Shown here: piece by piece, positions 2,676-12,617 of the stretch
How the letters are laid out: the number at the start of each line of letters is the position of its first letter
How positions within the stretch are numbered: position 1 is the first letter of the stretch
Assembly: GCA_963977445.1 (NCBI GenBank)
Contig: CAXBPH010000185.1
Coordinates: 1 to 14,239 of the forward strand
Length of the DNA: 14,239 nucleotides
Direction: 5' to 3'
Source: an uncultured bacterium
GTDB taxonomy: Bacteria; Hydrogenedentota; Hydrogenedentia; Hydrogenedentales; JAEUWI01
Translations under genes and position numbers: made by a program
The notes under the pieces: model-generated
Database searches by the model: none
What the model saw: only the letters and a program-made list of their open reading frames with translations
Told to the model about the DNA's origin: nothing

Positions 2676-3473
2676 TCAGCTTTTCGTAGCGTCCACCAGG
2701 GACTTCACGAAGGCCCCCACTTTCGGTGCGGTCTCGTCGCTGTCGCCGAGTTCACCAATCATGCGGACGATGGCGCTGCCTACTACCACGCCCTGGGCCA
2801 TGGTAGCGACGACTTTCGCCTGCTCGGGGGTGGAGATGCCGAAGCCGACGGCCACGGGGGTATCGGTGTGTTTCTGTATATTGGCGACGGCGGTGTCCAA
2901 ATCGTTGGCCAGTGCGGCTTGCTCGCCGGTGACACCGAGGCGGGACACGTAGTAGATAAAGCCCGTCGACTGTTTGGCGATCAGCTCGATCCGTTCGTCG
3001 GTACTGGTAGGCGACATGAGGAAGACGGTCCGCAGATCGTTGGCGTCGAGGGCAGCCTTGTAGCCGTCGGCCTCTTCGGGAGGCAGATCAACACAGAGCA
3101 CCCCGTCGGCACCGGCATCGGCAGCGGCCGTTGCGAATGCTTCCAGCCCATAGGCCAACACAGGGTTGTAGTAGGTGAAGATGAGAATGGCGACCTGGGA
3201 CTTCGCCCGGATGTTCTTGATGAGGCCAATGACATCCTTCAGGGTGACGTGGTTCTTCAGCGCGCGGAGGGCCGCTTCCTGATTTACCGGGCCGTCACCG
3301 ATGGGGTCCGAAAAGGGCACACCAAATTCGATGATGTCCGCGCCGGCTTCTTCCAGGGCGTAGACGATCTTTTCGGTCTGTGCGAGGGTCGGGTCACCGG
3401 CGGTGATATAGGGAATGAATGCGGTTTTTCCCGCGGCTTTCAGGTCTTGGAATCGTTGGTCAATGCGGTTCAC
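2676..3473 (-). CDS. trpA: Tryptophan synthase alpha chain
   Basis: FIPYITAGDP, IEFGVPFSDPIGDGP (catalytic Glu/Asp), YYVSRLGVTG, VGFGIS, GVVVGSA. GTG start with GAGGAG upstream. Confidence 0.98.
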   Translation of the reverse strand: MNRIDQRFQDLKAAGKTAFIPYITAGDPTLAQTEKIVYALEEAGADIIEFGVPFSDPIGDGPVNQEAALRALKNHVTLKDVIGLIKNIRAKSQVAILIFTYYNPVLAYGLEAFATAAADAGADGVLCVDLPPEEADGYKAALDANDLRTVFLMSPTSTDERIELIAKQSTGFIYYVSRLGVTGEQAALANDLDTAVANIQKHTDTPVAVGFGISTPEQAKVVATMAQGVVVGSAIVRMIGELGDSDETAPKVGAFVKSLVDATKS

Positions 3474-3478
3474 GGTGC

Positions 3479-4711
3479 CTATATCTCCTCGTCCGGCATG
3501 ATGAGCCGGGCGGCTTGCGTTACATCTTTATCGCCACGACCCGAAAGGTTCACGATGACGATATCGTCTTTGGGCATGTCGGGCACGACCTTGATGGCGT
3601 GGGCGATGGCGTGGGAGCTTTCCAGGGCGGGAATGATGCCCTCCAGCTTGCTGCACGTCTGAAAGGCGGCGAGGGCTTCTTCGTCACTGGCGTGGGTGTA
3701 GTTGACCCGGCCACTCTTGTGAAAGAACGCATGCTCTGGACCAACACTGGCATAATCCAGCCCGGCGGAAACACTGTGGGTGGCACCAATTTGTCCGGCG
3801 TCATCCTGGAGCACATAGCTGATGGCCCCATGGAGCATGCCGTAGTGGCCACCATCGAATCGGGCCGCATGTTCTCCGGGAACGATGGCCCGCCCCCCCG
3901 CTTCCACGCCGATCATGGCGACGTCTTCGTCTCCTACGAATTCAAAAAACAGTCCGATGGCATTGCTGCCGCCACCGACGCAGGCGATGAGTGTGTTGGG
4001 CAGGCGGCCCTCGGCGGCGAGGATTTGCCGCCGGGCTTCTTTGCCGATAACGCTCTGAAAATCGCGGCAAATCATGGGAAAGGGATGGGGTCCATGTACC
4101 GTGCCCAGGACATAGTGTGAATCGCCTACGGTGGTCACCCAATCACGGAGGGCCTCGTTGATGGCGTCTTTGAGGGTCTTACTGCCCGATTTTACCGAGA
4201 CGACTTCACTGCCGAGGAGGCGCATGCGGAATACATTGAGCTTTTGACGCTCAATATCTTCCGAGCCCATGTAGACGACACATTTCAAGCCCAGGAGCGC
4301 GCAGGCGGTCGCTGTGGCCACGCCGTGCTGCCCCGCGCCGGTTTCGGCGATAATACGCTTCTTTCCCATGCGCTTGGCCAGCAGACACTGTCCGAGGGCG
4401 TTATTTATCTTGTGGGCACCGGTATGGGCCAAATCTTCCCGTTTGAGATAGATTTTCGCACCACCGAGATGTTCCGTCAGGCGGGAAGCGAAATAAAGTG
4501 GCGTTTCCCGACCGATGTAGTGGGTGCGCAGGTCTTCGAGCTGTGCCTCAAAGGCGGGGTCCGCCTGGGCAGCGATATAGGCCTTTTCAAGTTCGTCGAG
4601 GGCATACATGAGCGTCTCGGGGACAAATTTTCCTCCGAAATCACCGTAGCGCCCCTTGGCGTCAGGCCAGAGATGCTTTTGCGTTGTGGATGAAGGCGCG
4701 AATTCGGTCAT
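3479..4711 (-). CDS. trpB: Tryptophan synthase beta chain
   Basis: [15 protein letters not shown] (PLP lysine), [46 protein letters not shown]. Exact start is uncertain (50-nt overlap with trpF). Confidence 0.98.
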
Positions 4712-5282
4712 GATCTTTCTTTCCGGGGGCAGATTCCACCCCGCTCGACGTATCTACGGCGTAGGGCCGTACGAGGCCCACGGCTTCGGCTACATTTTCG
4801 GGTGTGAGGCCACCCGCGAGTATGATTGGTTTTCCTGTACCCACCGCCATCTTCGCAAATTCCCAGTCGCCCTGCTCTCCTGTGCCGCCCCGATCCGTGT
4901 TGGACCAGGCATCCAGCAGGTAGGCGCGCACGGGGTACCGCGTCATGTCACTGATACCAAAGCCCGGGCCGGGCCGAAAGGCTTTGATGGTCACGTGACT
5001 CGGTGGACAGTCCTCGGGCTCTTCTTCGCCATGAAGCTGAACGCAGTCAAAATAGGTCAGATGTCCGGCCAACTCCATGATGGGGGCATTTACCGTCACC
5101 GCAACGGTGGTGATAAAGGGGGGCAACTGCTCGATAATTTCAATAGCCGCTTCCCGCTCTATATAGCGATTGCGTTTCTTTGCTTCGGGTGCCAACACAA
5201 AACCGAGGGCGTCGGCTCCAGCTTCACAGGCCACCAGGGCATCTTCCAGGTTGGTGATGCCGCAAATCTTAACTTTGGTCAT
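4662..5282 (-). CDS. trpF: Phosphoribosylanthranilate isomerase
   Basis: [49 protein letters not shown] 5282 overlaps the end of trpC. Confidence 0.97.
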
Positions 5283-6051
5283 GGCCAAGCAACTCCCGCA
5301 TTTTTCCCCGGATGTCGTTGCTCGTCAAAAGCGATTCACCCACCAGGATGGCATCCACGCCCCCGGCTTCCAGGGTTTCCACCTGCTCACGGGTATAGAT
5401 TCCACTCTCGCTGACCAGGGTATTGCCGCCGGGAACCATCCTTTTCAGTTCCAGCGTCCGATTTACATCCACGGTCAAGGTGTCGAGGTCGCGATTGTTA
5501 ATACCAATGATATGCGCACCGGCATCCAGAGCCCGGGAAATTTCTTCCGCCGTGTGGGTCTCCACCAGCACTTCCATCTCCAACTTCCGGGCAAGTTTGT
5601 AAAAATTCATGAGCTCTTTGTCGGTCAGGCATCGGACGATGAGCAGGATGGCATCCGCGGAGGCCGCCCGGGCTTCATAAATCTGATACTCGTCGATGAC
5701 GAACTCTTTGCGAAGACAAGGTATCTGCACATGGCGGTGTACGTTAGTCAGATCTTCGAGCTTGCCTTTGAAGAACTTCTCGTCGGTCAAGACGGATATA
5801 GCCCGGGCACCCATTTGCTCGTAGAGGGCGGCAATTTCGACCGCATCGACGTCCGGCAGGATATCGCCCTTGGACGGTGAGGCCCGTTTGACCTCGGCGA
5901 TAAGGCTTATGCCTTCCTGGCGCAGGGCGGCGCGGAAATCCCGGGGTTTTCGGTTGAAGGAAATTCTTTCCTCCAACTCCGCCATGGGAACGGATATCTT
6001 ACGCGCTTCTACTTCAACGCGCTTATTTTCTAGGATAGGATCAAGAATCAT
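5269..6051 (-). CDS. trpC: Indole-3-glycerol phosphate synthase
   Basis: IAEVKRASPSKG, AISVLTD, LRKEFVID, ADAILLI, IGINNRDL, VSESGI, LVGESL. ATG 6051 overlaps the last 11 nt of trpD. Confidence 0.97.
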   Translation of the reverse strand: MILDPILENKRVEVEARKISVPMAELEERISFNRKPRDFRAALRQEGISLIAEVKRASPSKGDILPDVDAVEIAALYEQMGARAISVLTDEKFFKGKLEDLTNVHRHVQIPCLRKEFVIDEYQIYEARAASADAILLIVRCLTDKELMNFYKLARKLEMEVLVETHTAEEISRALDAGAHIIGINNRDLDTLTVDVNRTLELKRMVPGGNTLVSESGIYTREQVETLEAGGVDAILVGESLLTSNDIRGKMRELLGHDQS

Positions 6052-7054
6052 TGCTTCTCTGGACCAACTGTTCAAGTTTTTTCAATGCGGCCCCCGAATC
6101 GATGGCCACCCGAGCTTGCTCTATACCCGCTGCAATATTGTCAGCGGCGCCACCAGCCACCAGGGCCGGTGCTGCATTGAGGAGGACGATATCCCGACGT
6201 GGTCCGGGTTCGCCGGAAAGTACCGCGCGCAGAATGGCGGCATTGGCCTGGGCGTCGCCCCCCTTGAGGGCATCGGCCGATACGGTGGAAAGGCCAAAGT
6301 CTTCGGGGTGCACCTCGTAGGTGCGCACCATGCCGTCTCTCGCCTCTGCAACATAGCTGGAGCCCGTCAGCGTAATCTCGTCGAGTCCGTCGGAACCAGC
6401 GACAATAAACACATGGCGGCTGCCCAGATTCATGAGCACTTCTGCAATCGGAGCGACCAGCGACTTGTCAAAGACGCCGACCACCTGATTTTCAGCACCG
6501 GCAGGATTGGTAAGCGGGCCAAGAATGTTAAACATGGTGCGCAATTTAAGTTCTGCGCGAATGGGTCCCACGTTTTTCATGGCGCTGTGAAGATTGCGGG
6601 CAAAAAGGAATCCGATACCGATGGTATCGACGCACTCTCCCACGCGCTCGGCACCGACATTCAGGTTAACGCCCAGCGCTTCCAACACATCGGCACTGCC
6701 ACAAAGGCTTGACGCACTCCGGTTGCCGTGTTTGGCAACAGGGACCCCAGCGCCAGCAACGACAAAGGCCGACGTCGTGGATATGTTGAAGGTGCCCGAA
6801 TGGTCTCCACCCGTGCCGCACGTGTCTACCATGCCCACGGAGGTGGTGGGGATCTTGGTGGACAGGGCTCGCATGGTTTCCGCGAAACCCGTGATCTCCT
6901 CAACCGTTTCGCCTTTCATGGCAAAAGCGGTGAGCAGCGCGCCTACCTGACTTGGGGTGGCTTCCCCCGACATGAGAATGCGCATTACGGCGGAGGCGCT
7001 TTCCCGATCAAGATTTTCGCCGCGTACAACACGCGCGAGGGCCTCTTGAATCAT
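6041..7054 (-). CDS. trpD: Anthranilate phosphoribosyltransferase
   Basis: DTCGTGGD, FNISTT, AKHGNRS, GSADVLEALG, RTMFNILGPLTNPA, DGLDE. AGGAG RBS upstream of ATG 7054. Confidence 0.98.
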   Translation of the reverse strand: MIQEALARVVRGENLDRESASAVMRILMSGEATPSQVGALLTAFAMKGETVEEITGFAETMRALSTKIPTTSVGMVDTCGTGGDHSGTFNISTTSAFVVAGAGVPVAKHGNRSASSLCGSADVLEALGVNLNVGAERVGECVDTIGIGFLFARNLHSAMKNVGPIRAELKLRTMFNILGPLTNPAGAENQVVGVFDKSLVAPIAEVLMNLGSRHVFIVAGSDGLDEITLTGSSYVAEARDGMVRTYEVHPEDFGLSTVSADALKGGDAQANAAILRAVLSGEPGPRRDIVLLNAAPALVAGGAADNIAAGIEQARVAIDSGAALKKLEQLVQRSNDS

Positions 7055-7104
7055 GAGAAATCTCCTGTAAGTTTATACACTGCACGCCCGCATAGAGGAC
7101 AGTG

Positions 7105-7134
7105 ACTTTACCAATCGAGGGGCTTTAAAGTCAA
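7105..7134 (-). promoter_or_regulatory. Putative sigma70 promoter for trpDCFBA, embedded in an inverted repeat
   Basis: Minus strand TTGACT-N18-TAAAGT, with TG-N before the -10 box (extended -10). It overlaps the dyad TGACTTTA(7103-7110)-N15-TAAAGTCA(7126-7133). Confidence 0.55.
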
Positions 7135-7145
7135 TAAGTGTCCAA

Positions 7146-8456
7146 TTATGGCTTTGTTTGGACACCTCGAAAAAGCGCCTCTCCCCTCAACCTTTCAGCG
7201 ACTACTTTGTGTGCCGTTGGCCGGGGATGACTGTCGTAGGGAAGGAAGAAGTAGTCTTCTGGCTTGCCAGTGAGCAGCGCGGTGTAATCCAGGACCCGTA
7301 TTCCCCGCTTTTCCAAGTAGGGAATCATGATCCTCGTGTCGAATTCATTCGAAGGGGTCTCAGGATAAAAAAGGACATAGAAATCATCGGAAGCAAACTG
7401 TGCCGTGAACTCTTCCGCGGCCGCCTCGATGATCGCGGCGGTCAATTGGAATTCCTTTTTGCCGAGAAAAATCGGAAAGTCCAGCTGGTAGTACTGAAAG
7501 ACCTGATCACCCTGGAGGAAATCGTACCATTGTGTGAGGCCCGCCCGTTCCCCCTGAAAGGATCCTGAACGTACGACTTCCCCATCGCCTCCAAAGTGAT
7601 AGTAGGGCGAATGGCGCGACCAATTTATGACGGAATACGCACCGATAACCCGCCGTACGTGATTGGGTATGAAGGTATACACCGCCGCCACGGTTGCTTC
7701 TGGCACGTCAGCCCGTACATCGTAGGACTCCAGGCGGGCGAGCATCTGGCCGGGGCCGTAGCCACTGAAAGCATAATTATACATGGTCGTGTCCGGCTCG
7801 AGCAGGGCGAGTTGATTGGGCAGCGTTTCTTCATCGTTGACGCCCTCGCCGAAGGCGAAGGAGCCGCCGAAAAATAGGATGGCCCTTTCGCGCTGGGTAT
7901 TCGTGTTCGCCTGGCTGGGAACGTTGCGCCGCTTGTGGCTATCGGTGGTGTAGGTGTAATCGAAAACAAGTTCACCGCGAACGGTCAGTCGTGCGTCTGC
8001 CGTGAATTGGGGTCTGGGGCCATAGCCTAACACCCGGTCAAACCGGTAACTGTCGCCCCGACTGTGAGACCCGATACGTTCGATAGTTTCCGCACGATTG
8101 CGGTTCAATTTCCAATATACCCCTTGGGCCATGCCATAGAGTCCGAGAAAGATCAGAAAAAAAACCAGCGGGCCTGCTAATCCGCTGATACGCCGGACCC
8201 TTTTCTCTTCCATAGGTTGGAAATAGCGGGCCAGACAAACGCCAAGTAGCCCAGCAATAAAAAGCCAAATACCCAATAGGGTGCATTGGTATTCATAGGG
8301 GGCGAGTCGACCAATGCCCAGGCGATAGCATACATAGACGCCTCCCCCACACCCCACGACGGCTACCCAGCAAAGGAGCGCGAGCCGGGTGCGCTGCCAT
8401 CGCGCTGCCTTAGAAAGGGCGGTGTTCTCCTCTGACGAAGCACCGCTATTTCCCAT
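7146..8456 (-). CDS. Membrane-anchored SGNH/GDSL hydrolase-like protein (~436 aa)
   Basis: Three N-terminal hydrophobic helices. Block I-like FFGGSFAFGEG, block II-like YNYAFSGYG and C-terminal YDSHP (D-x-H). Start chosen at ATG 8456 (MGNSG), which overlaps the upstream gene by 11 nt. Confidence 0.7.
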   Translation of the reverse strand: MGNSGASSEENTALSKAARWQRTRLALLCWVAVVGCGGGVYVCYRLGIGRLAPYEYQCTLLGIWLFIAGLLGVCLARYFQPMEEKRVRRISGLAGPLVFFLIFLGLYGMAQGVYWKLNRNRAETIERIGSHSRGDSYRFDRVLGYGPRPQFTADARLTVRGELVFDYTYTTDSHKRRNVPSQANTNTQRERAILFFGGSFAFGEGVNDEETLPNQLALLEPDTTMYNYAFSGYGPGQMLARLESYDVRADVPEATVAAVYTFIPNHVRRVIGAYSVINWSRHSPYYHFGGDGEVVRSGSFQGERAGLTQWYDFLQGDQVFQYYQLDFPIFLGKKEFQLTAAIIEAAAEEFTAQFASDDFYVLFYPETPSNEFDTRIMIPYLEKRGIRVLDYTALLTGKPEDYFFLPYDSHPRPTAHKVVAERLRGEALFRGVQTKP

Positions 8457-9417
8457 GGGCGGGGCGTCCCGTGGAACGATTGCGCAGGGTAGACACGATG
8501 AGCCGTATTTCGACTTGCGACACCTTTTTCCCGACAATCGGACCGATTATGGCCGGGTTGAGGGTTTCCGCCTGTCCGGCCACCATGGCCACCATGAGAT
8601 AGGTGGGCCGGTCAATCCAGGGAAAGGGCGTGGTTCTGCCCGATTCTTCGATATAGCGTTCCAGGGCGGTGCCACACCATTCCGAATCGCGGTCCAGCGC
8701 CTCTGCAACCATGCTCAGCGCTTCTTCTCGTTCAAAATAAGGAAATGCGAGTCGCATGGGGTCGTCGGCCGCCAGGATTACCTTGGGAACGTTGGGTGGT
8801 AACGTCGCCAGGGGCGGGACTACTGCCGGCGTCGGGGCAGCTGTCTTCACCGTTGTTGCTGTTGCCTTCTCCTGCGGCAGCGGCACGTCGAGAGGCTTTA
8901 CCCGCAGACTCAGGGTGGCGATCACGGCATTGTACGCCACACCGCCTTGGGGCTCGTCCAGTAGTGCGAGGATCGGTGCGTCGGGTAAGAGTGCGCGTAA
9001 GGAACGAAGGGTTGCATAGTCTTCCAGGCAATCGGAGGCATCCAGGTTGCAACGTTGCGCAGAAGCCACTACCACCTGGGAGGGTGCCAGAGACTGCATG
9101 AATTGCACGAATTTCTTCTGGAGGAACCGTTCGGGAGAAACAAACAAGTATTCGATCTCCCCGGCGCGCAGCCGTTCGGCCACGACACGGCGGTCGTCAT
9201 CGGCCATATCCGGTACGATCCGGGTTGAACGTTTGGCGATGTCTGCTGCTTCGCTGGCCTGTACCAGATGGTGTGTCATGTCGGGAACGACGATGAGCCA
9301 AAGGTGGCCTGCTTGTGTGCCATGAAGGTGGACAAGCTCGGGCCATTGTTGGGCCCTTGGGGTGGTGTCAACCACGGCATCGGTGCCTGCAATGACGGAT
9401 GAAAGTTCACGGCTCAT
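8446..9417 (-). CDS. RecQ-derived protein: degenerate helicase domain 1 + Pro/Ala/Thr linker + HTH_40-like C-terminal domain (323 aa)
   Basis: RLRAGEIEYLFVSPERF and DYATLRSLRALLPDAPILAL track RecQ domain 1 (GQIRLLYIAPERL; EYAALGQLRQRFPTLPFMAL). The C-terminus LSMVAEALDRDSEWCGTALERYI...VSQVEIRLIV resembles HTH_40. ATG 9417 overlaps the mgtE stop (ATGA). Confidence 0.7.
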   Translation of the reverse strand: MSRELSSVIAGTDAVVDTTPRAQQWPELVHLHGTQAGHLWLIVVPDMTHHLVQASEAADIAKRSTRIVPDMADDDRRVVAERLRAGEIEYLFVSPERFLQKKFVQFMQSLAPSQVVVASAQRCNLDASDCLEDYATLRSLRALLPDAPILALLDEPQGGVAYNAVIATLSLRVKPLDVPLPQEKATATTVKTAAPTPAVVPPLATLPPNVPKVILAADDPMRLAFPYFEREEALSMVAEALDRDSEWCGTALERYIEESGRTTPFPWIDRPTYLMVAMVAGQAETLNPAIIGPIVGKKVSQVEIRLIVSTLRNRSTGRPAHGK

Positions 9418-10811
9418 GGGCTTGCCGTCCCGAGTAGCCCGAAATGGGTCGCGAGGGTCGCCAAGGCCAGCATGAGAAAGAGGCCGAACATATCGGTCAG
9501 TGTCGTCTGAATCGGGGGCGCACCCAGCGCGGGATCGGCCTTCATACGTCGAATTAATAAGGGAATTACGCCGCCGATGCACACGGCGAGCACCGTGTTG
9601 AGCAGGAAGGCCAGTCCAACAAACAGGGCCAACACGGGCACCTGATACCCCTGCACACGATCAAGTCCAAAGGCGACAAGCACCACAATGGTCCCGAGCA
9701 CGCCACCATTGATGAGACCAATCTGCACTTCCTTCCGCAGTACGCGGAAAATATCAGTGGGCTGAATGAGGCCCAGAGTAAGCTCCCGAATACTCACCGC
9801 AACGGCCTGGTTGCCACTGCACCCGCACAGATTTCCGATAATGGGGATAAAGAACAGCAATATGGGAAAACTGACCACGGTAGATTCAAACAGGGGAATT
9901 ACGGCGGCCGCCATCATGCTCAGGGGCAAGTTAATGCCGAGCCAGACCATGCGTCGGGTGACCCGCTCGCGGGTTGGCATACTCCGCAATTCCTCGCCAC
10001 CGATAATACCACCAAAGCGCATGAGGCTCTTCTCGATCCCCTCGCCGAGGGCTTCTTCGGCTTCGGCTCGGTGGACCACGCCCACCATCCGGTGTTCCAT
10101 GTCAGTGACGGGAACACTGTAAAACAGGTAGCGATCAAAAAGCTGCGTGAGTTCATCCAGGGGCGTGTCGACAAGGACGTAAATGGGGTTTACAATCATC
10201 AGCTCTTGCAGCGGGGTCTCGGCGGGCGCGAGGATCAGGTCTCTCAGGCGAAGTACGCCCACTAACGTGCCCCGTTTGCTGTTTACATAGGCATATTGAA
10301 CCCCAAAATCGCTGTAACGCTCTGCATTGGCGCGTAAATCCTGGATGACCTCCCCGACCAATGTGCCCTGCCCATAGGTCACAAATTCGGTCATCATGAT
10401 GCCGCCAGCGGTCTCTTCATGGTATTCGAGGAGCAACCGGGCGTCTTTCGCCTCCTCGGGATCCATGGCACGGAGAATGGCCTCTGCATCGTCTTCGTCC
10501 ATCTCTCCGAGGATGTCGGCGCGATGGTTACTCTCCATCTCGTCGATAATGGCGGCTGCCTCTTTCGCCGCCAGCATTTCTACGAGGTCCGAGCCCTGGG
10601 TGTCTGACAATTCCTCAATAAGGTCGGCCGCTTCTTCCGGACCGAGGAGCACGAGAACATCGTGCTGCTCTGCCTCATTAAGGCGGGTAAAGGCCCGGGC
10701 CACCTGGCCCGGATTGAGCAGATCGAGATAGGCGGCCAGTCCATCACTGTCCCGTGCTGTCACGAGCAGGCGAATCTGCTCCCAACTCTCGTTGGCGACC
10801 GCGTCATTCAT
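9414..10811 (-). CDS. mgtE: Magnesium transporter MgtE
   Basis: Acidic N-terminal domain, TAGGIMMTEF, two CBS domains (LVGVLRLRDLI; VPVTDMEHRMVGVV) and five TM segments with GNLCGCSGNQA and DPALGAPPIQTTLTD (Mg-binding Asp retained). Confidence 0.95.
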   Translation of the reverse strand: MNDAVANESWEQIRLLVTARDSDGLAAYLDLLNPGQVARAFTRLNEAEQHDVLVLLGPEEAADLIEELSDTQGSDLVEMLAAKEAAAIIDEMESNHRADILGEMDEDDAEAILRAMDPEEAKDARLLLEYHEETAGGIMMTEFVTYGQGTLVGEVIQDLRANAERYSDFGVQYAYVNSKRGTLVGVLRLRDLILAPAETPLQELMIVNPIYVLVDTPLDELTQLFDRYLFYSVPVTDMEHRMVGVVHRAEAEEALGEGIEKSLMRFGGIIGGEELRSMPTRERVTRRMVWLGINLPLSMMAAAVIPLFESTVVSFPILLFFIPIIGNLCGCSGNQAVAVSIRELTLGLIQPTDIFRVLRKEVQIGLINGGVLGTIVVLVAFGLDRVQGYQVPVLALFVGLAFLLNTVLAVCIGGVIPLLIRRMKADPALGAPPIQTTLTDMFGLFLMLALATLATHFGLLGTASP

Positions 10812-10992
10812 CGGGCAGATTTCTCCACGGTATCACCCGGGAGATCACACCGTATATATCGAGCTGTCATGGTTGGGGAAATCCTCTGGGTTCAATGAGT
10901 GGAGACTGGAGCATTCGCAGAAACACAGTTTAACAAAGTTGAATCGTAGATGGGTATGATTCCGTAGGTAGCGGCGTTGGGGTGCATTGGCG

Positions 10993-11010
10993 TAGCGATA
11001 TTGCTATACT
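10993..11010 (+). promoter_or_regulatory. Putative extended -10 promoter with overlapping near-palindrome upstream of the ANL-family gene
   Basis: TG-C-TATACT at 11002-11010. TAGCGAT/ATTGCTA 14-bp dyad with one mismatch at 10993-11006. No good -35 box. Confidence 0.4.
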
Positions 11011-11090
11011 CTGCGGCTCCCGTATTGTGATGGAATCGCGCGCTCAGAATCGTGCATCGTATGGCCGATTGTGCCGCAGGATAGCCCTAT

Positions 11091-12617
11091 ATGGCCCTCA
11101 ATGTAGCCGAATGTATTACCTTGCCCGCACAACAATCACCAGAAGCTGTGGCCCTGGTTTTTGAATCCATCCGTTTGACCTTTGGCTCCCTGTTGGAACA
11201 GGTTCAGCGCGTTGCGGCCTTTCTGGAGCGCTCCGGGCTTCAGCCAGGTGATCGGGTGGCCCTTCTGTTGCCGAATACCCCCCACTTTCCCATTATTTAC
11301 TATGGGGTGCTCTATGCCGGTGGGATTGCCGTGCCCCTTAACCCGATGCAGACCGCCGGAGAACTTAACTATCTTTTGCAGGATGCCACTCCCCAATTGG
11401 TCTTCGTCTGGTCGGACCTGGCGGACGTAGTCACCCGGGCAACGGAAGGATTGACGTCGATACCTGACCTCGTTGTGGTTGAGACCGACCTGGTCACGGT
11501 TGTGCCGGAATCGGGGTATTCCTTCCTTACCGAAATGGCCCGTGCCGACACCAAACCAGCGATGGCAGAAACCACACCCGATGATGTGGCGGTTATTATG
11601 TATACGGCGGCTTACAATGGTCGGCCCCTGGGCGCGCAATTAACCCACTACAATATTTTCCAGAATGCCTACACCGCAGGCCATCGATTGCTGAAGTTCA
11701 CGCCCGAGGATTGCAGCTTGGGCGTGCTGCCGTTATTTCATAGTTTTGGGCAGATTGTCCTTATGAACGCCGTGCTACTTGCAGGGTCCAGCCTGGTGCT
11801 CATGGCGCGCTTTGATGCCACGCGGGTCTTCGAATTGATAGAAAAAGAACGGGTCACCGTTATTGGGCTCGTGCCGACCATGTATCACTTTCTGCTGGGG
11901 ACAAAAACCAACCTGCAGCCGGACCTATCCTCCCTCCGTCATGTGCTTGCCGGTGGGGCCATGCTCTCCCAAGACCTGGTAGTGGCCTTCAGGGAACGCT
12001 TTGGTCATACGATTCTCGAAGGGTATGGCCTGACGGAGACCAGTCCGGTCGTCTCTTTTAATATGTCGATGGAAGCCAATCGACCCGGCTCGATGGGCCT
12101 TCCCCTCTGGGGGTGCAACGTCCGGGCGGTTGATGAGGCCGGAAACACCCTGCCACCCGGTGAGACGGGTGAGCTTCTTGTTCGTGGTCATAACGTGATG
12201 AAGGGCTACCTGAATCAACCGGAGGTCACCGAAAAGGCGATTGTGGACGGTTGGTTCCATACCGGCGACAGGGGTTATCTCGACAAGGACGGCTACCTCT
12301 ATTTTCAGGGGCTCAAAAAGGATATGTTCATTCGTGCCGGGCTGAACGTCTATCCCCGGGAAATTGAGCGGGTATTGGAAGAGCATCCCCAGGTAGCCGA
12401 GGCGGCCGTCATTGGAGTGGCCGACGTGGTTCGTGGTGCGGAAGGGCAGGCATTTGTCGTGCTGTCTTCTGAGCTCGACGATGCCGAAAAAGAACTTAAA
12501 CGCTATTGTCGGGAGCTCATGGCGGGCTACAAGTGTCCACGGGCCATTGTGTTCCTCGCGAGTTTGCCCCGACGGAATGACGGTCGAATTGATAAAGATG
12601 CGCTACGGGAACGTTGA
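11091..12617 (+). CDS. Long-chain acyl-CoA ligase-like ANL adenylate-forming protein with atypical catalytic motifs
   Basis: GDRVALLLPN, LPLFHSFG, EGYGLTETSP, GELLVRGHNVMKGY, GWFHTGD, NVYPREIE, YKCPR. The P-loop, A8 and A10 motifs deviate from consensus. AGGA RBS upstream. Confidence 0.9.
   Translation: MALNVAECITLPAQQSPEAVALVFESIRLTFGSLLEQVQRVAAFLERSGLQPGDRVALLLPNTPHFPIIYYGVLYAGGIAVPLNPMQTAGELNYLLQDATPQLVFVWSDLADVVTRATEGLTSIPDLVVVETDLVTVVPESGYSFLTEMARADTKPAMAETTPDDVAVIMYTAAYNGRPLGAQLTHYNIFQNAYTAGHRLLKFTPEDCSLGVLPLFHSFGQIVLMNAVLLAGSSLVLMARFDATRVFELIEKERVTVIGLVPTMYHFLLGTKTNLQPDLSSLRHVLAGGAMLSQDLVVAFRERFGHTILEGYGLTETSPVVSFNMSMEANRPGSMGLPLWGCNVRAVDEAGNTLPPGETGELLVRGHNVMKGYLNQPEVTEKAIVDGWFHTGDRGYLDKDGYLYFQGLKKDMFIRAGLNVYPREIERVLEEHPQVAEAAVIGVADVVRGAEGQAFVVLSSELDDAEKELKRYCRELMAGYKCPRAIVFLASLPRRNDGRIDKDALRER

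Follow-up and report, generated by a model that had tools for sequence, protein, structure and literature searches.

What becomes of a helicase when the residues of its ATPase are gone and only its first and last domains remain? The question is raised by a gene in a stretch of 14,239 nucleotides (nt) from an uncultured bacterium of the Hydrogenedentota (contig CAXBPH010000185.1 of assembly GCA_963977445.1), which is here called the window. Directly downstream of mgtE this gene encodes a short protein, here named mini-RecQ, which an earlier reading made from the letters of the window (the sequence-only reading) had taken for an apparently catalytically dead, minimal derivative of RecQ. The analysis presented here finds in mini-RecQ a RecQ domain 1 (D1) fold without ATPase motifs and a divergent HTH_40 domain, both under purifying selection, and it suggests a protein that acts by binding.

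Domain composition and motifs of mini-RecQ

Some 165 N-terminal amino acids (aa) had been aligned by eye, and colinearly, with RecQ D1. A profile of the 13-member mini-RecQ family matched 13 long RecQs in hhalign at 99.6% (E 1.8e-23) over 162 columns. The NCBIfam RecQ models matched residues ~66-154 with E from 8.6e-8 to 4.6e-6; the scores were 25.7 bits against a cut-off of 219.8 for TIGR00614, below the threshold of the RecQ family, and 28.6 against 640.2 for TIGR01389. Solved RecQ chains in the PDB were matched by sequence at E 5e-4 and 3e-3. In BLASTP against the RecQ of the same genome, the N-terminal part aligned at E 1e-8 and the C-terminal part, colinear with it, at E 2e-4. A Pfam scan of the mini-RecQ protein returned nothing even at E 10, and none of the 13 family members scanned with Pfam showed a DEAD match.

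The predicted structure pointed to the same family. The AlphaFold2 model used was built from a 13-sequence alignment and had a mean predicted local distance difference test (pLDDT) of 83.9, compared with only 63.9 for an earlier model from a 4-row alignment. It consists of an alpha/beta domain (residues 14-168), a disordered stretch (179-217) and a six-helix domain (220-317). About 40 Foldseek matches in the PDB were listed (to rank 50), and all were members of the RecQ family, aligned over 167-179 columns with a root-mean-square deviation of 2.4-3.8; they included the RecQs of E. coli, C. sakazakii and D. radiodurans as well as RECQL5, WRN, BLM and RECQ1, with E 2.2e-7 to 1oyy. The VIA structure search, in which the matches were filled by the N-domain (model residues 1-186) and the C-domain was barely probed, returned seven RecQ-family chains at Z 16.2-20.0, whereas other superfamily 2 helicases reached 13.9 at most. 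This difference identifies the N-domain specifically as RecQ D1 and not as a generic RecA fold. The alignment made by eye was thereby borne out by hhalign, NCBIfam, the PDB chains, Foldseek and VIA.

The C-terminal domain was best recognised by profile and fold. Compared by hhalign with the C-terminal extension of RecQ it scored 99.3% (E 2.6e-20), and the BLASTP match to the RecQ of its own genome falls in the last ~100 residues of that protein. Among the hits of the family profile are the C-terminal ends of long RecQs and numerous small proteins; of 16 profile matches scanned with Pfam, 12 were assigned to HTH_40, including all six full-length long RecQs. The ESM Atlas placed residues 215-318 on HTH_40 (features 0.90; 21 of 30 matches), and its predicted structure gave template modelling (TM) scores of 0.69-0.80 to the HTH_40 parts of RecQ and Pif1-type helicases. 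Pfam's own model, PF14493, misses mini-RecQ at E<=10 and all 13 family members at E<=1; in the RecQ tail of the same genome HTH_40 is not called by Pfam at E<=0.01 either. The HTH_40-like C-domain proposed by the sequence-only reading therefore stands by profile and by fold, not by the Pfam model, and the C-domain is an HTH_40 relative which that model overlooks. The C-domain contains PFPW, the best-conserved motif in the family and one held in common with RecQ HTH_40. All 14 rows share P264 and W267, and W267 aligns with RecQ W664, a Trp kept in 23/23 RecQs and in 13/13 family rows.

Between the two folded domains the modules of a complete RecQ are missing. Neither in mini-RecQ (Pfam to E 10) nor in 13 family members was a Helicase_C, Zn, RQC or HRDC domain found, and the protein measures 323 aa against 606-866 aa for RecQs. 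Residues 179-217 have a pLDDT below 50 and are predicted to be disordered, and across the family the linker varies from 12 to 87 aa. Pfam and AlphaFold2 thus agree with the earlier proposal that helicase domain 2 (D2), Zn/RQC and HRDC have given way to a linker rich in Pro, Ala and Thr. The coordinates of these parts and of the neighbouring genes are collected in Table 1.

Table 1. Features of mini-RecQ and of the genes around it (positions in the window; residues of mini-RecQ).
Feature	Residues	Positions	Strand	Basis or remark
RecQ-derived pseudo-helicase gene (mini-RecQ)		8446..9417	-	Intact, 323 aa and stop
RecA-like domain with RecQ D1 fold, no ATPase motifs	1-172	8902..9417	-	hhalign, Foldseek, VIA; pLDDT mostly 83-95
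Walker A P-loop position, DTTPRAQQ	17-24	9346..9369	-	5 residues shorter, no Gly-Lys-Ser
Motif Ib, SPER, retained	94-97	9127..9138	-	Pro and Glu in 10/13 family rows
Motif II (DEAH) position, ASAQ	118-121	9055..9066	-	Profile alignment
Disordered linker rich in Pro, Ala and Thr, in place of D2, Zn, RQC and HRDC	173-217	8767..8901	-	
Divergent HTH_40 domain of six helices	218-323	8449..8766	-	hhalign, ESM Atlas; pLDDT 94-97
PFPW, most conserved motif of the family, common with RecQ HTH_40	264-267	8617..8628	-	
mgtE (Mg2+ channel), upstream		9414..10811	-	Pfam MgtE_N, CBS, MgtE
Membrane-anchored SGNH/GDSL-like protein, 436 aa, downstream		7146..8456	-	NCBIfam LA_2486 GDSL, weak (E 1.5e-5)
trpD, trpC, trpF, trpB, trpA, after the SGNH-like gene		2676-7054	-	Pfam
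AMP-binding ligase and dxs, far side of mgtE			+	Pfam

In RecQ and other superfamily 2 helicases, binding of Mg and of the phosphates of ATP falls to the Lys and Ser of Walker A, Mg and water are coordinated by DEAH, hydrolysis is linked to the binding of DNA through the aromatic-rich loop, and motif Ib contacts single-stranded nucleic acid. In the profile alignment RecQ PTGGGKS stands against DTTPRAQ, with a deletion of 5 residues, and motif Ia is shortened by five (SPLISLMKDQ against VP-----DMTHH). Further on, IDEAHCISQWGHDFRPEY is found opposite VASAQRCNLDASDCLEDY, and TATATP of motif III opposite LLDEPQ; VVASA was invariant in the 4-row alignment. The alignment begins at RecQ residue 24, so that the N-terminal segment with motif 0 is missing too. 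Motif Ib is kept (YVSPERV in RecQ, FVSPERF here), and its Arg, R97, is invariant in 14/14 rows. Every replacement listed by the sequence-only reading (Walker A, Ia, DEAH, aromatic loop and TAT, with SPER kept) was reproduced by hhalign.

Conservation was counted on a 39-row alignment containing 23 RecQs and 13 family rows. There are 46 D1 columns that are near-invariant in the 23 RecQs; 32 of these are kept in 0-2 of the 13 family rows and only four in at least 10 of them, namely the Pro of motif Ia, Pro-Glu of motif Ib and one Leu. RecQ K46, S47, D139, E140 and H142 are kept in none of the 13 rows, nor are W147 and H149 of the aromatic loop, and T174, T176 and T178 of motif III are kept in at most two. 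Judged from these residues, mini-RecQ is predicted to be unable to bind or hydrolyse ATP by the canonical mechanism and, lacking D2, unable to translocate or unwind. With both the ATP site and the second motor domain lost, it is no helicase of a known kind. Measured by what defines a RecQ (cut-off score, ATPase motifs, D2, Zn and RQC) mini-RecQ is not one, yet it derives from RecQ.

The N-domain also gave weak, partial PADLOC matches over residues 35-160, to DpdF (best E 8.2e-10, residues 53-152) and to PsyrT (E 1.2e-4), and an NCBIfam match to DpdF at E 0.0024. These could be taken to mean that mini-RecQ is still an NTPase, or a part of a RecQ-like defence or toxin system of DpdF or PsyrT type, working through non-canonical residues. 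Such an activity is extremely improbable. The matches are confined to the RecQ-like D1 segment, and with 16.5 bits the DpdF score stays far under its cut-off of 550. The P-loop has been deleted, motif II has lost its acidic residues in 13/13 rows, D2 is absent, and the neighbours are mgtE, the SGNH-like gene and trp genes, with no Dpd or PsyrA partners among them.

Distribution and selection

The mini-RecQ family is rare. A word-indexed search of 5.8 billion proteins yielded three relatives, with 36-37% identity, and an exhaustive profile search of 1.84 billion representatives yielded nine proteins at E<=1e-30, the query included; beyond that limit two distant full-length members (P0018 and P0039) and fragments were found. 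Wherever the sources name proteins of the family they call them hypothetical. Homologues with the same architecture, which the sequence-only reading had proposed to collect, do exist, since the 13 aligned rows and P0039 all carry the two domains and the dead motifs.

Two further candidates were set aside. An 882-aa protein of the octocoral Dendronephthya gigantea (P0014) had E 5.3e-27, which is the sum of 11 weak repeat matches around 'RRPFPV'; it was dismissed as a tandem repeat with an inflated score. P0080, 447 aa from a metagenome contig of 1802 nt, is RecQ-like, with Met for the Walker A Lys and 'KAAH' for DEAH. As a family member it was rejected, because this dead RecQ-like fragment falls outside the family in the tree.

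Among 135 Hydrogenedentota genomes searched, both domains were found in one short frame in 10, which belong to two genera of one family: all nine genomes of genus g1, to which the genome of the window belongs, and one genome of genus g4 (G011, whose member is P0039, 305 aa). In the other genomes the matches are confined to long RecQs and fall into two separate pieces. The genome of the window holds two further, intact RecQ-family genes above the TIGR00614 cut-off (471 and 368 bits against 219.8), so that the separate intact recQ which had been proposed as a check is present. One of them is a RecQ (L001:1477-3615) of 712 aa with DEAD, Helicase_C, Zn, RQC and HRDC domains and a C-terminal extension.

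Selection was measured as the ratio of nonsynonymous to synonymous substitution rates (dN/dS) by the NG86 method, and only for pairs in which dS was unsaturated or moderately saturated, namely the six pairs among loci L011-L014 and the pair L015/L016. The N-domain gave 0.17-0.23 in the six pairs and 0.15 in the seventh, and the C-domain 0.15-0.26 and 0.14, while the linker gave 0.34-1.03. In the same genomes the ratio was 0.02-0.03 for MgtE, 0.01-0.08 for the Trp genes, 0.015-0.02 for Dxs and 0.07-0.19 for the SGNH-like gene. The TrpC row of L018/L019 (dN 2.19) was left out as an alignment artefact of a partial gene, as were whole-gene ratios between the window and other loci, where dS is saturated (1.3 to over 5). 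Both folded domains are thus under purifying selection, 5-10 times weaker than that on the neighbouring housekeeping genes.

The reading frame was uninterrupted in 7/7 related loci; the stops flagged in three rows of the genome search are gene ends, where the match runs one codon past the stop. Across 14 rows of 20-41% identity, 12 columns are invariant, and they cluster in motif Ib and the PFPW region.

These data bear directly on whether mini-RecQ is a decaying remnant of a recQ duplicate, functionless and surviving only through its position in an operon. No other gene of the region evolves as fast (within the genus its identity is 32-40%, that of its neighbours 50-93%), sister genera in which mgtE abuts trpD do without it, and its protein has lost all catalytic residues and four domains, all of which would suit a remnant. 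A remnant would hardly account for ratios of 0.14-0.26 in the folded domains next to the higher ones of the linker, for intact frames and the occurrence of the gene in every genome of the genus, for the 12 invariant columns, or for a confident AlphaFold2 prediction of both domains. A dN/dS well below 1 in both domains argues that mini-RecQ is not decaying neutrally; we consider a remnant very unlikely and uphold the earlier claim that the gene is no decaying pseudogene.

Gene neighbourhood and origin

The mini-RecQ gene is tightly packed between its neighbours. Its open frame spans 8446-9582 on the reverse strand, and the ATG at 9417 is the supported start, as the homologues too open with 'MS' (M1 and S2 are invariant in the 4-row alignment A1). 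A GTG at 9582, which would give 378 aa, was rejected because the added residues would be encoded within mgtE and because the homologues start from the ATG. The ATG and the TGA of mgtE overlap (ATGA), and mgtE was found immediately upstream in every related locus that extends far enough. On the other side the SGNH-like gene most likely starts at the ATG at 8456, which gives an overlap of 11 nt with the end of the mini-RecQ gene. Coupling to both neighbours, as claimed by the sequence-only reading, accordingly holds at the level of the sequence if the ATG at 8456 is the start, and the frame is as intact as had been stated.

The SGNH-like protein has no Pfam family in the Pfam scan. Read from its sequence, it has N-terminal hydrophobic segments and GDSL-like blocks ('GGSFAFGEG' and, C-terminally, 'DSHP'). 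Its gene follows that of mini-RecQ in L017-L022 and L032 and is missing in L030 (G004), where mini-RecQ is kept. The genes of the trp cluster overlap one another, and neither trpE nor trpG is present in the window. A scan of 6900-11200 for promoters and terminators gave counts not above those of shuffled sequences (3 against 2.3 expected, and 6 against 3.9). One sigma-70-like site was noted just 5' of trpD, at 7134-7105 on the reverse strand, and such sites are not commoner than chance.

The gene order shared by G011 and the loci of genus g1 is dxs <- (AMP-ligase <-) mgtE -> mini-RecQ -> SGNH-like -> trpDCFBA. In the sister genera g2 (G009) and g3 (G010), mgtE runs straight to trpD, and both mini-RecQ and the SGNH-like gene are absent, which marks the two as a lineage-specific pair at the mgtE-trpD junction. 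The loci in question (L047, G009:C456; L048, G010:C4) read dxs <- AMP-ligase <- mgtE -> trpDCFBA, with a gap of about 100-150 nt between mgtE and trpD.

The constant neighbourhood could be explained if mini-RecQ assisted or regulated the MgtE channel as a subunit whose dead nucleotide-binding-like fold docks or senses. The start codon that overlaps the mgtE stop would fit, as would the position directly after mgtE across two genera, which holds even where the SGNH-like gene is missing (L030). Gene order is nevertheless the sole support, the mgtE orthologues of G009, G010 and most of the phylum lack the partner gene, and the adjacency is explained equally by descent from a recQ linked to mgtE. 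A channel subunit is therefore regarded as unlikely. A complex prediction with the cytosolic part of MgtE (residues 1-318) and mini-RecQ scored 0.00, a value that weighs for neither side.

Descent from such a recQ may be traced in two other families of the order. In G025 (family f12; L045, G025:C1 3137-7204) mgtE is followed on one strand by a trypsin-like gene and a recQ of 606 aa, and in G020 (family f7; L037, G020:C96 6509-12554) by two trypsin-like genes and a recQ of 866 aa, again on one strand. The trypsin-like genes of the two genomes are homologous (39-44% identity, E 1e-50 and 2e-70), and neither genome gave a match to a long RecQ other than the one linked to mgtE. That a RecQ-derived gene should directly follow mgtE in one family and recQ itself lie close behind the orthologous mgtE in two more is unlikely to be chance. 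The likeliest origin of mini-RecQ is descent in place from a recQ that was linked to mgtE and became dispensable once a second RecQ copy was present. As to the two RecQs themselves, no RQC domain was called by Pfam in that of G025, and that of G020 carries two tandem HTH_40-like copies, the second of which is the best match to the mini-RecQ C-domain outside the family (96.8 bits).

A maximum-likelihood tree was built from 39 rows and 292 shared columns. It finds the mini-RecQ family monophyletic (support 100/97), with P0024, a RecQ-derived protein of another phylum described below, as its sister (98/98). This placement may reflect the attraction of two long, degenerate branches, and the tree program warns of such rows. 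In the 135 Hydrogenedentota genomes P0024 has no close relatives, its best matches being ordinary RecQs with 26-33% identity.

Proposed function and comparison with known systems

The catalytic residues and four of six domains have been lost, yet selection keeps the gene, and for this reason a non-enzymatic binding protein is the most likely product. We infer that mini-RecQ is a pseudo-helicase which acts by binding and not by catalysis. The sequence-only reading had likewise proposed a non-enzymatic scaffold, a binder of nucleic acid or a modulator of RecQ, and these roles too are putative. The PFPW surface of its HTH_40 domain is the best conserved and is common to bona fide RecQs; it would thus most likely bind the same ligand as the RecQ tail, be it a partner protein or a structure in DNA. 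A second docking surface may be offered by the dead D1, and the Pro-Glu-Arg retained in motif Ib may still touch single-stranded DNA. Mini-RecQ could in this way recruit to the ligand of the HTH_40 tail, or compete with RecQ for it, and such a part as adaptor or competitor is the one favoured here. An engineered, catalytically dead helicase of the RecQ4 family is reported to be dominant negative through DNA binding (bioRxiv 10.64898/2026.02.13.705743), so that a dominant-negative effect is possible in principle.

As to the nature of the ligand, the N-domain has an isoelectric point of 4.5-7.9 across the rows and the C-domain is net negative in 12/14 of them. The HTH_40 domains of real RecQs are likewise acidic in 9/13, which makes a protein no less likely a ligand than DNA.

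The same charges bear on another possibility, a sequence-specific transcription regulator in which HTH_40 would sit on an operator (e.g. of mgtE or trp) and D1 would sense a ligand or oligomerise. The C-domain does come from a family named after the helix-turn-helix, and the gene does sit between mgtE and trpDCFBA. HTH_40 is known, however, solely from small stand-alone proteins and from the tails of RecQ and Pif1-type helicases, not as a characterised regulator; the C-domain is predominantly negative as just stated; and the sister genera share the mgtE-trp arrangement without mini-RecQ. A regulator of this kind is quite unlikely.

Taken as a whole, the reading in which mini-RecQ is a two-module RecQ paralogue with a dead D1, held by purifying selection, acting by binding and arisen in place is considered probable. 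Several observations weigh against it. Mini-RecQ retains 32-40% aa identity within the genus where MgtE, the Trp proteins and Dxs retain 65-93%, the SGNH-like protein being at 50-56% (40% in L032), and a dN/dS of about 0.2 is a sign of relaxed constraint. Domains that are acidic to neutral in their predicted charge would not favour strong non-specific DNA binding, and the literature searched mentions HTH_40 in passing only and describes no ligand for it. Against the origin in place stand the direct passage from mgtE to trpD in the sister genera g2 (G009) and g3 (G010), the linkage of mgtE and recQ in only two genomes, and the gene tree, in which the family falls in a polytomy among long RecQs and is not resolved as sister to the mgtE-linked ones. 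On the last two counts the origin in place is put forward as an inference.

A wider and more speculative proposal joins mini-RecQ to P0024. The two might mark a clade of non-catalytic RecQ paralogues in which the death of the ATPase came first and the loss of domains second, and in which D1 and HTH_40 carry the non-enzymatic contacts of RecQ; mini-RecQ, arisen in place from a recQ linked to mgtE, would then act towards the ligand of the HTH_40 tail as a recruiter or as a dominant negative. This proposal is tentative and, as it stands, rather doubtful. If true, such a clade would give a handle on the role of HTH_40 in RecQ and Pif1-type helicases.

The interest of mini-RecQ lies partly in its being a natural dissection of RecQ: D1 has been kept without its chemistry and together with HTH_40, which points to a binding role apart from unwinding. 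Natural pseudo-helicases are few, and a putative case of the RecQ type is hereby added to them. The gene also offers a compact example of a redundant repair gene that was whittled down and then retained, and its product, small and soluble-looking, may be a useful reagent for finding the ligand of HTH_40, which is widespread on RecQ and Pif1-type helicases. The reach of the case is limited by the rarity of the family, its confinement to uncultured bacteria and the putative nature of its function.

The sequence-only reading had not recognised this architecture as one described before. In the literature searched, which left subscription journals and supplements outside, neither a D1 + HTH_40 architecture nor a RecQ pseudo-helicase was found described. 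Pseudo-helicases of other descent are PriA of Deinococcus radiodurans and yeast Utp25, which are reported to have degenerate helicase motifs and to act without unwinding (PMC4504706, PMC9539457). They differ from mini-RecQ in that they belong to other helicase families and have both RecA-like domains; neither joins a lone RecQ D1 to HTH_40.

A further comparison is with P0024 (MBN1518405.1), a 773-aa 'HRDC domain-containing protein' from a metagenome-assembled genome of Candidatus Sumerlaeota. Like mini-RecQ it is RecQ-derived and has neither G.GK[ST] nor DE.H; unlike mini-RecQ it belongs to another phylum and has kept all six modules in a degenerate form, as read from its sequence. Its motifs III and VI are degenerate, and a Zn-finger-like Cys cluster and HRDC-like and HTH_40-like parts are kept.

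The nearest known system is the long form of RecQ, built of DEAD, Helicase_C, RecQ_Zn_bind, RQC, HRDC and HTH_40, for which the 712-aa RecQ of the same genome is an example. Its first and last modules are homologous to those of mini-RecQ and colinear with them, the D1 fold of mini-RecQ comes closest to structures of the RecQ family, and motif Ib and the Trp of HTH_40 are held in common. In contrast, mini-RecQ has no equivalent of about residues 200-600 (D2, Zn, RQC and HRDC) and has lost motifs 0, I, most of Ia, II and III together with the aromatic-rich loop. The C-domain resembles, in addition, the stand-alone and helicase-attached HTH_40 proteins of PF14493, as the ESM Atlas comparison indicates, and the family profile finds them. 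In mini-RecQ, HTH_40 is joined to a dead D1 and not to an active helicase or to HRDC.

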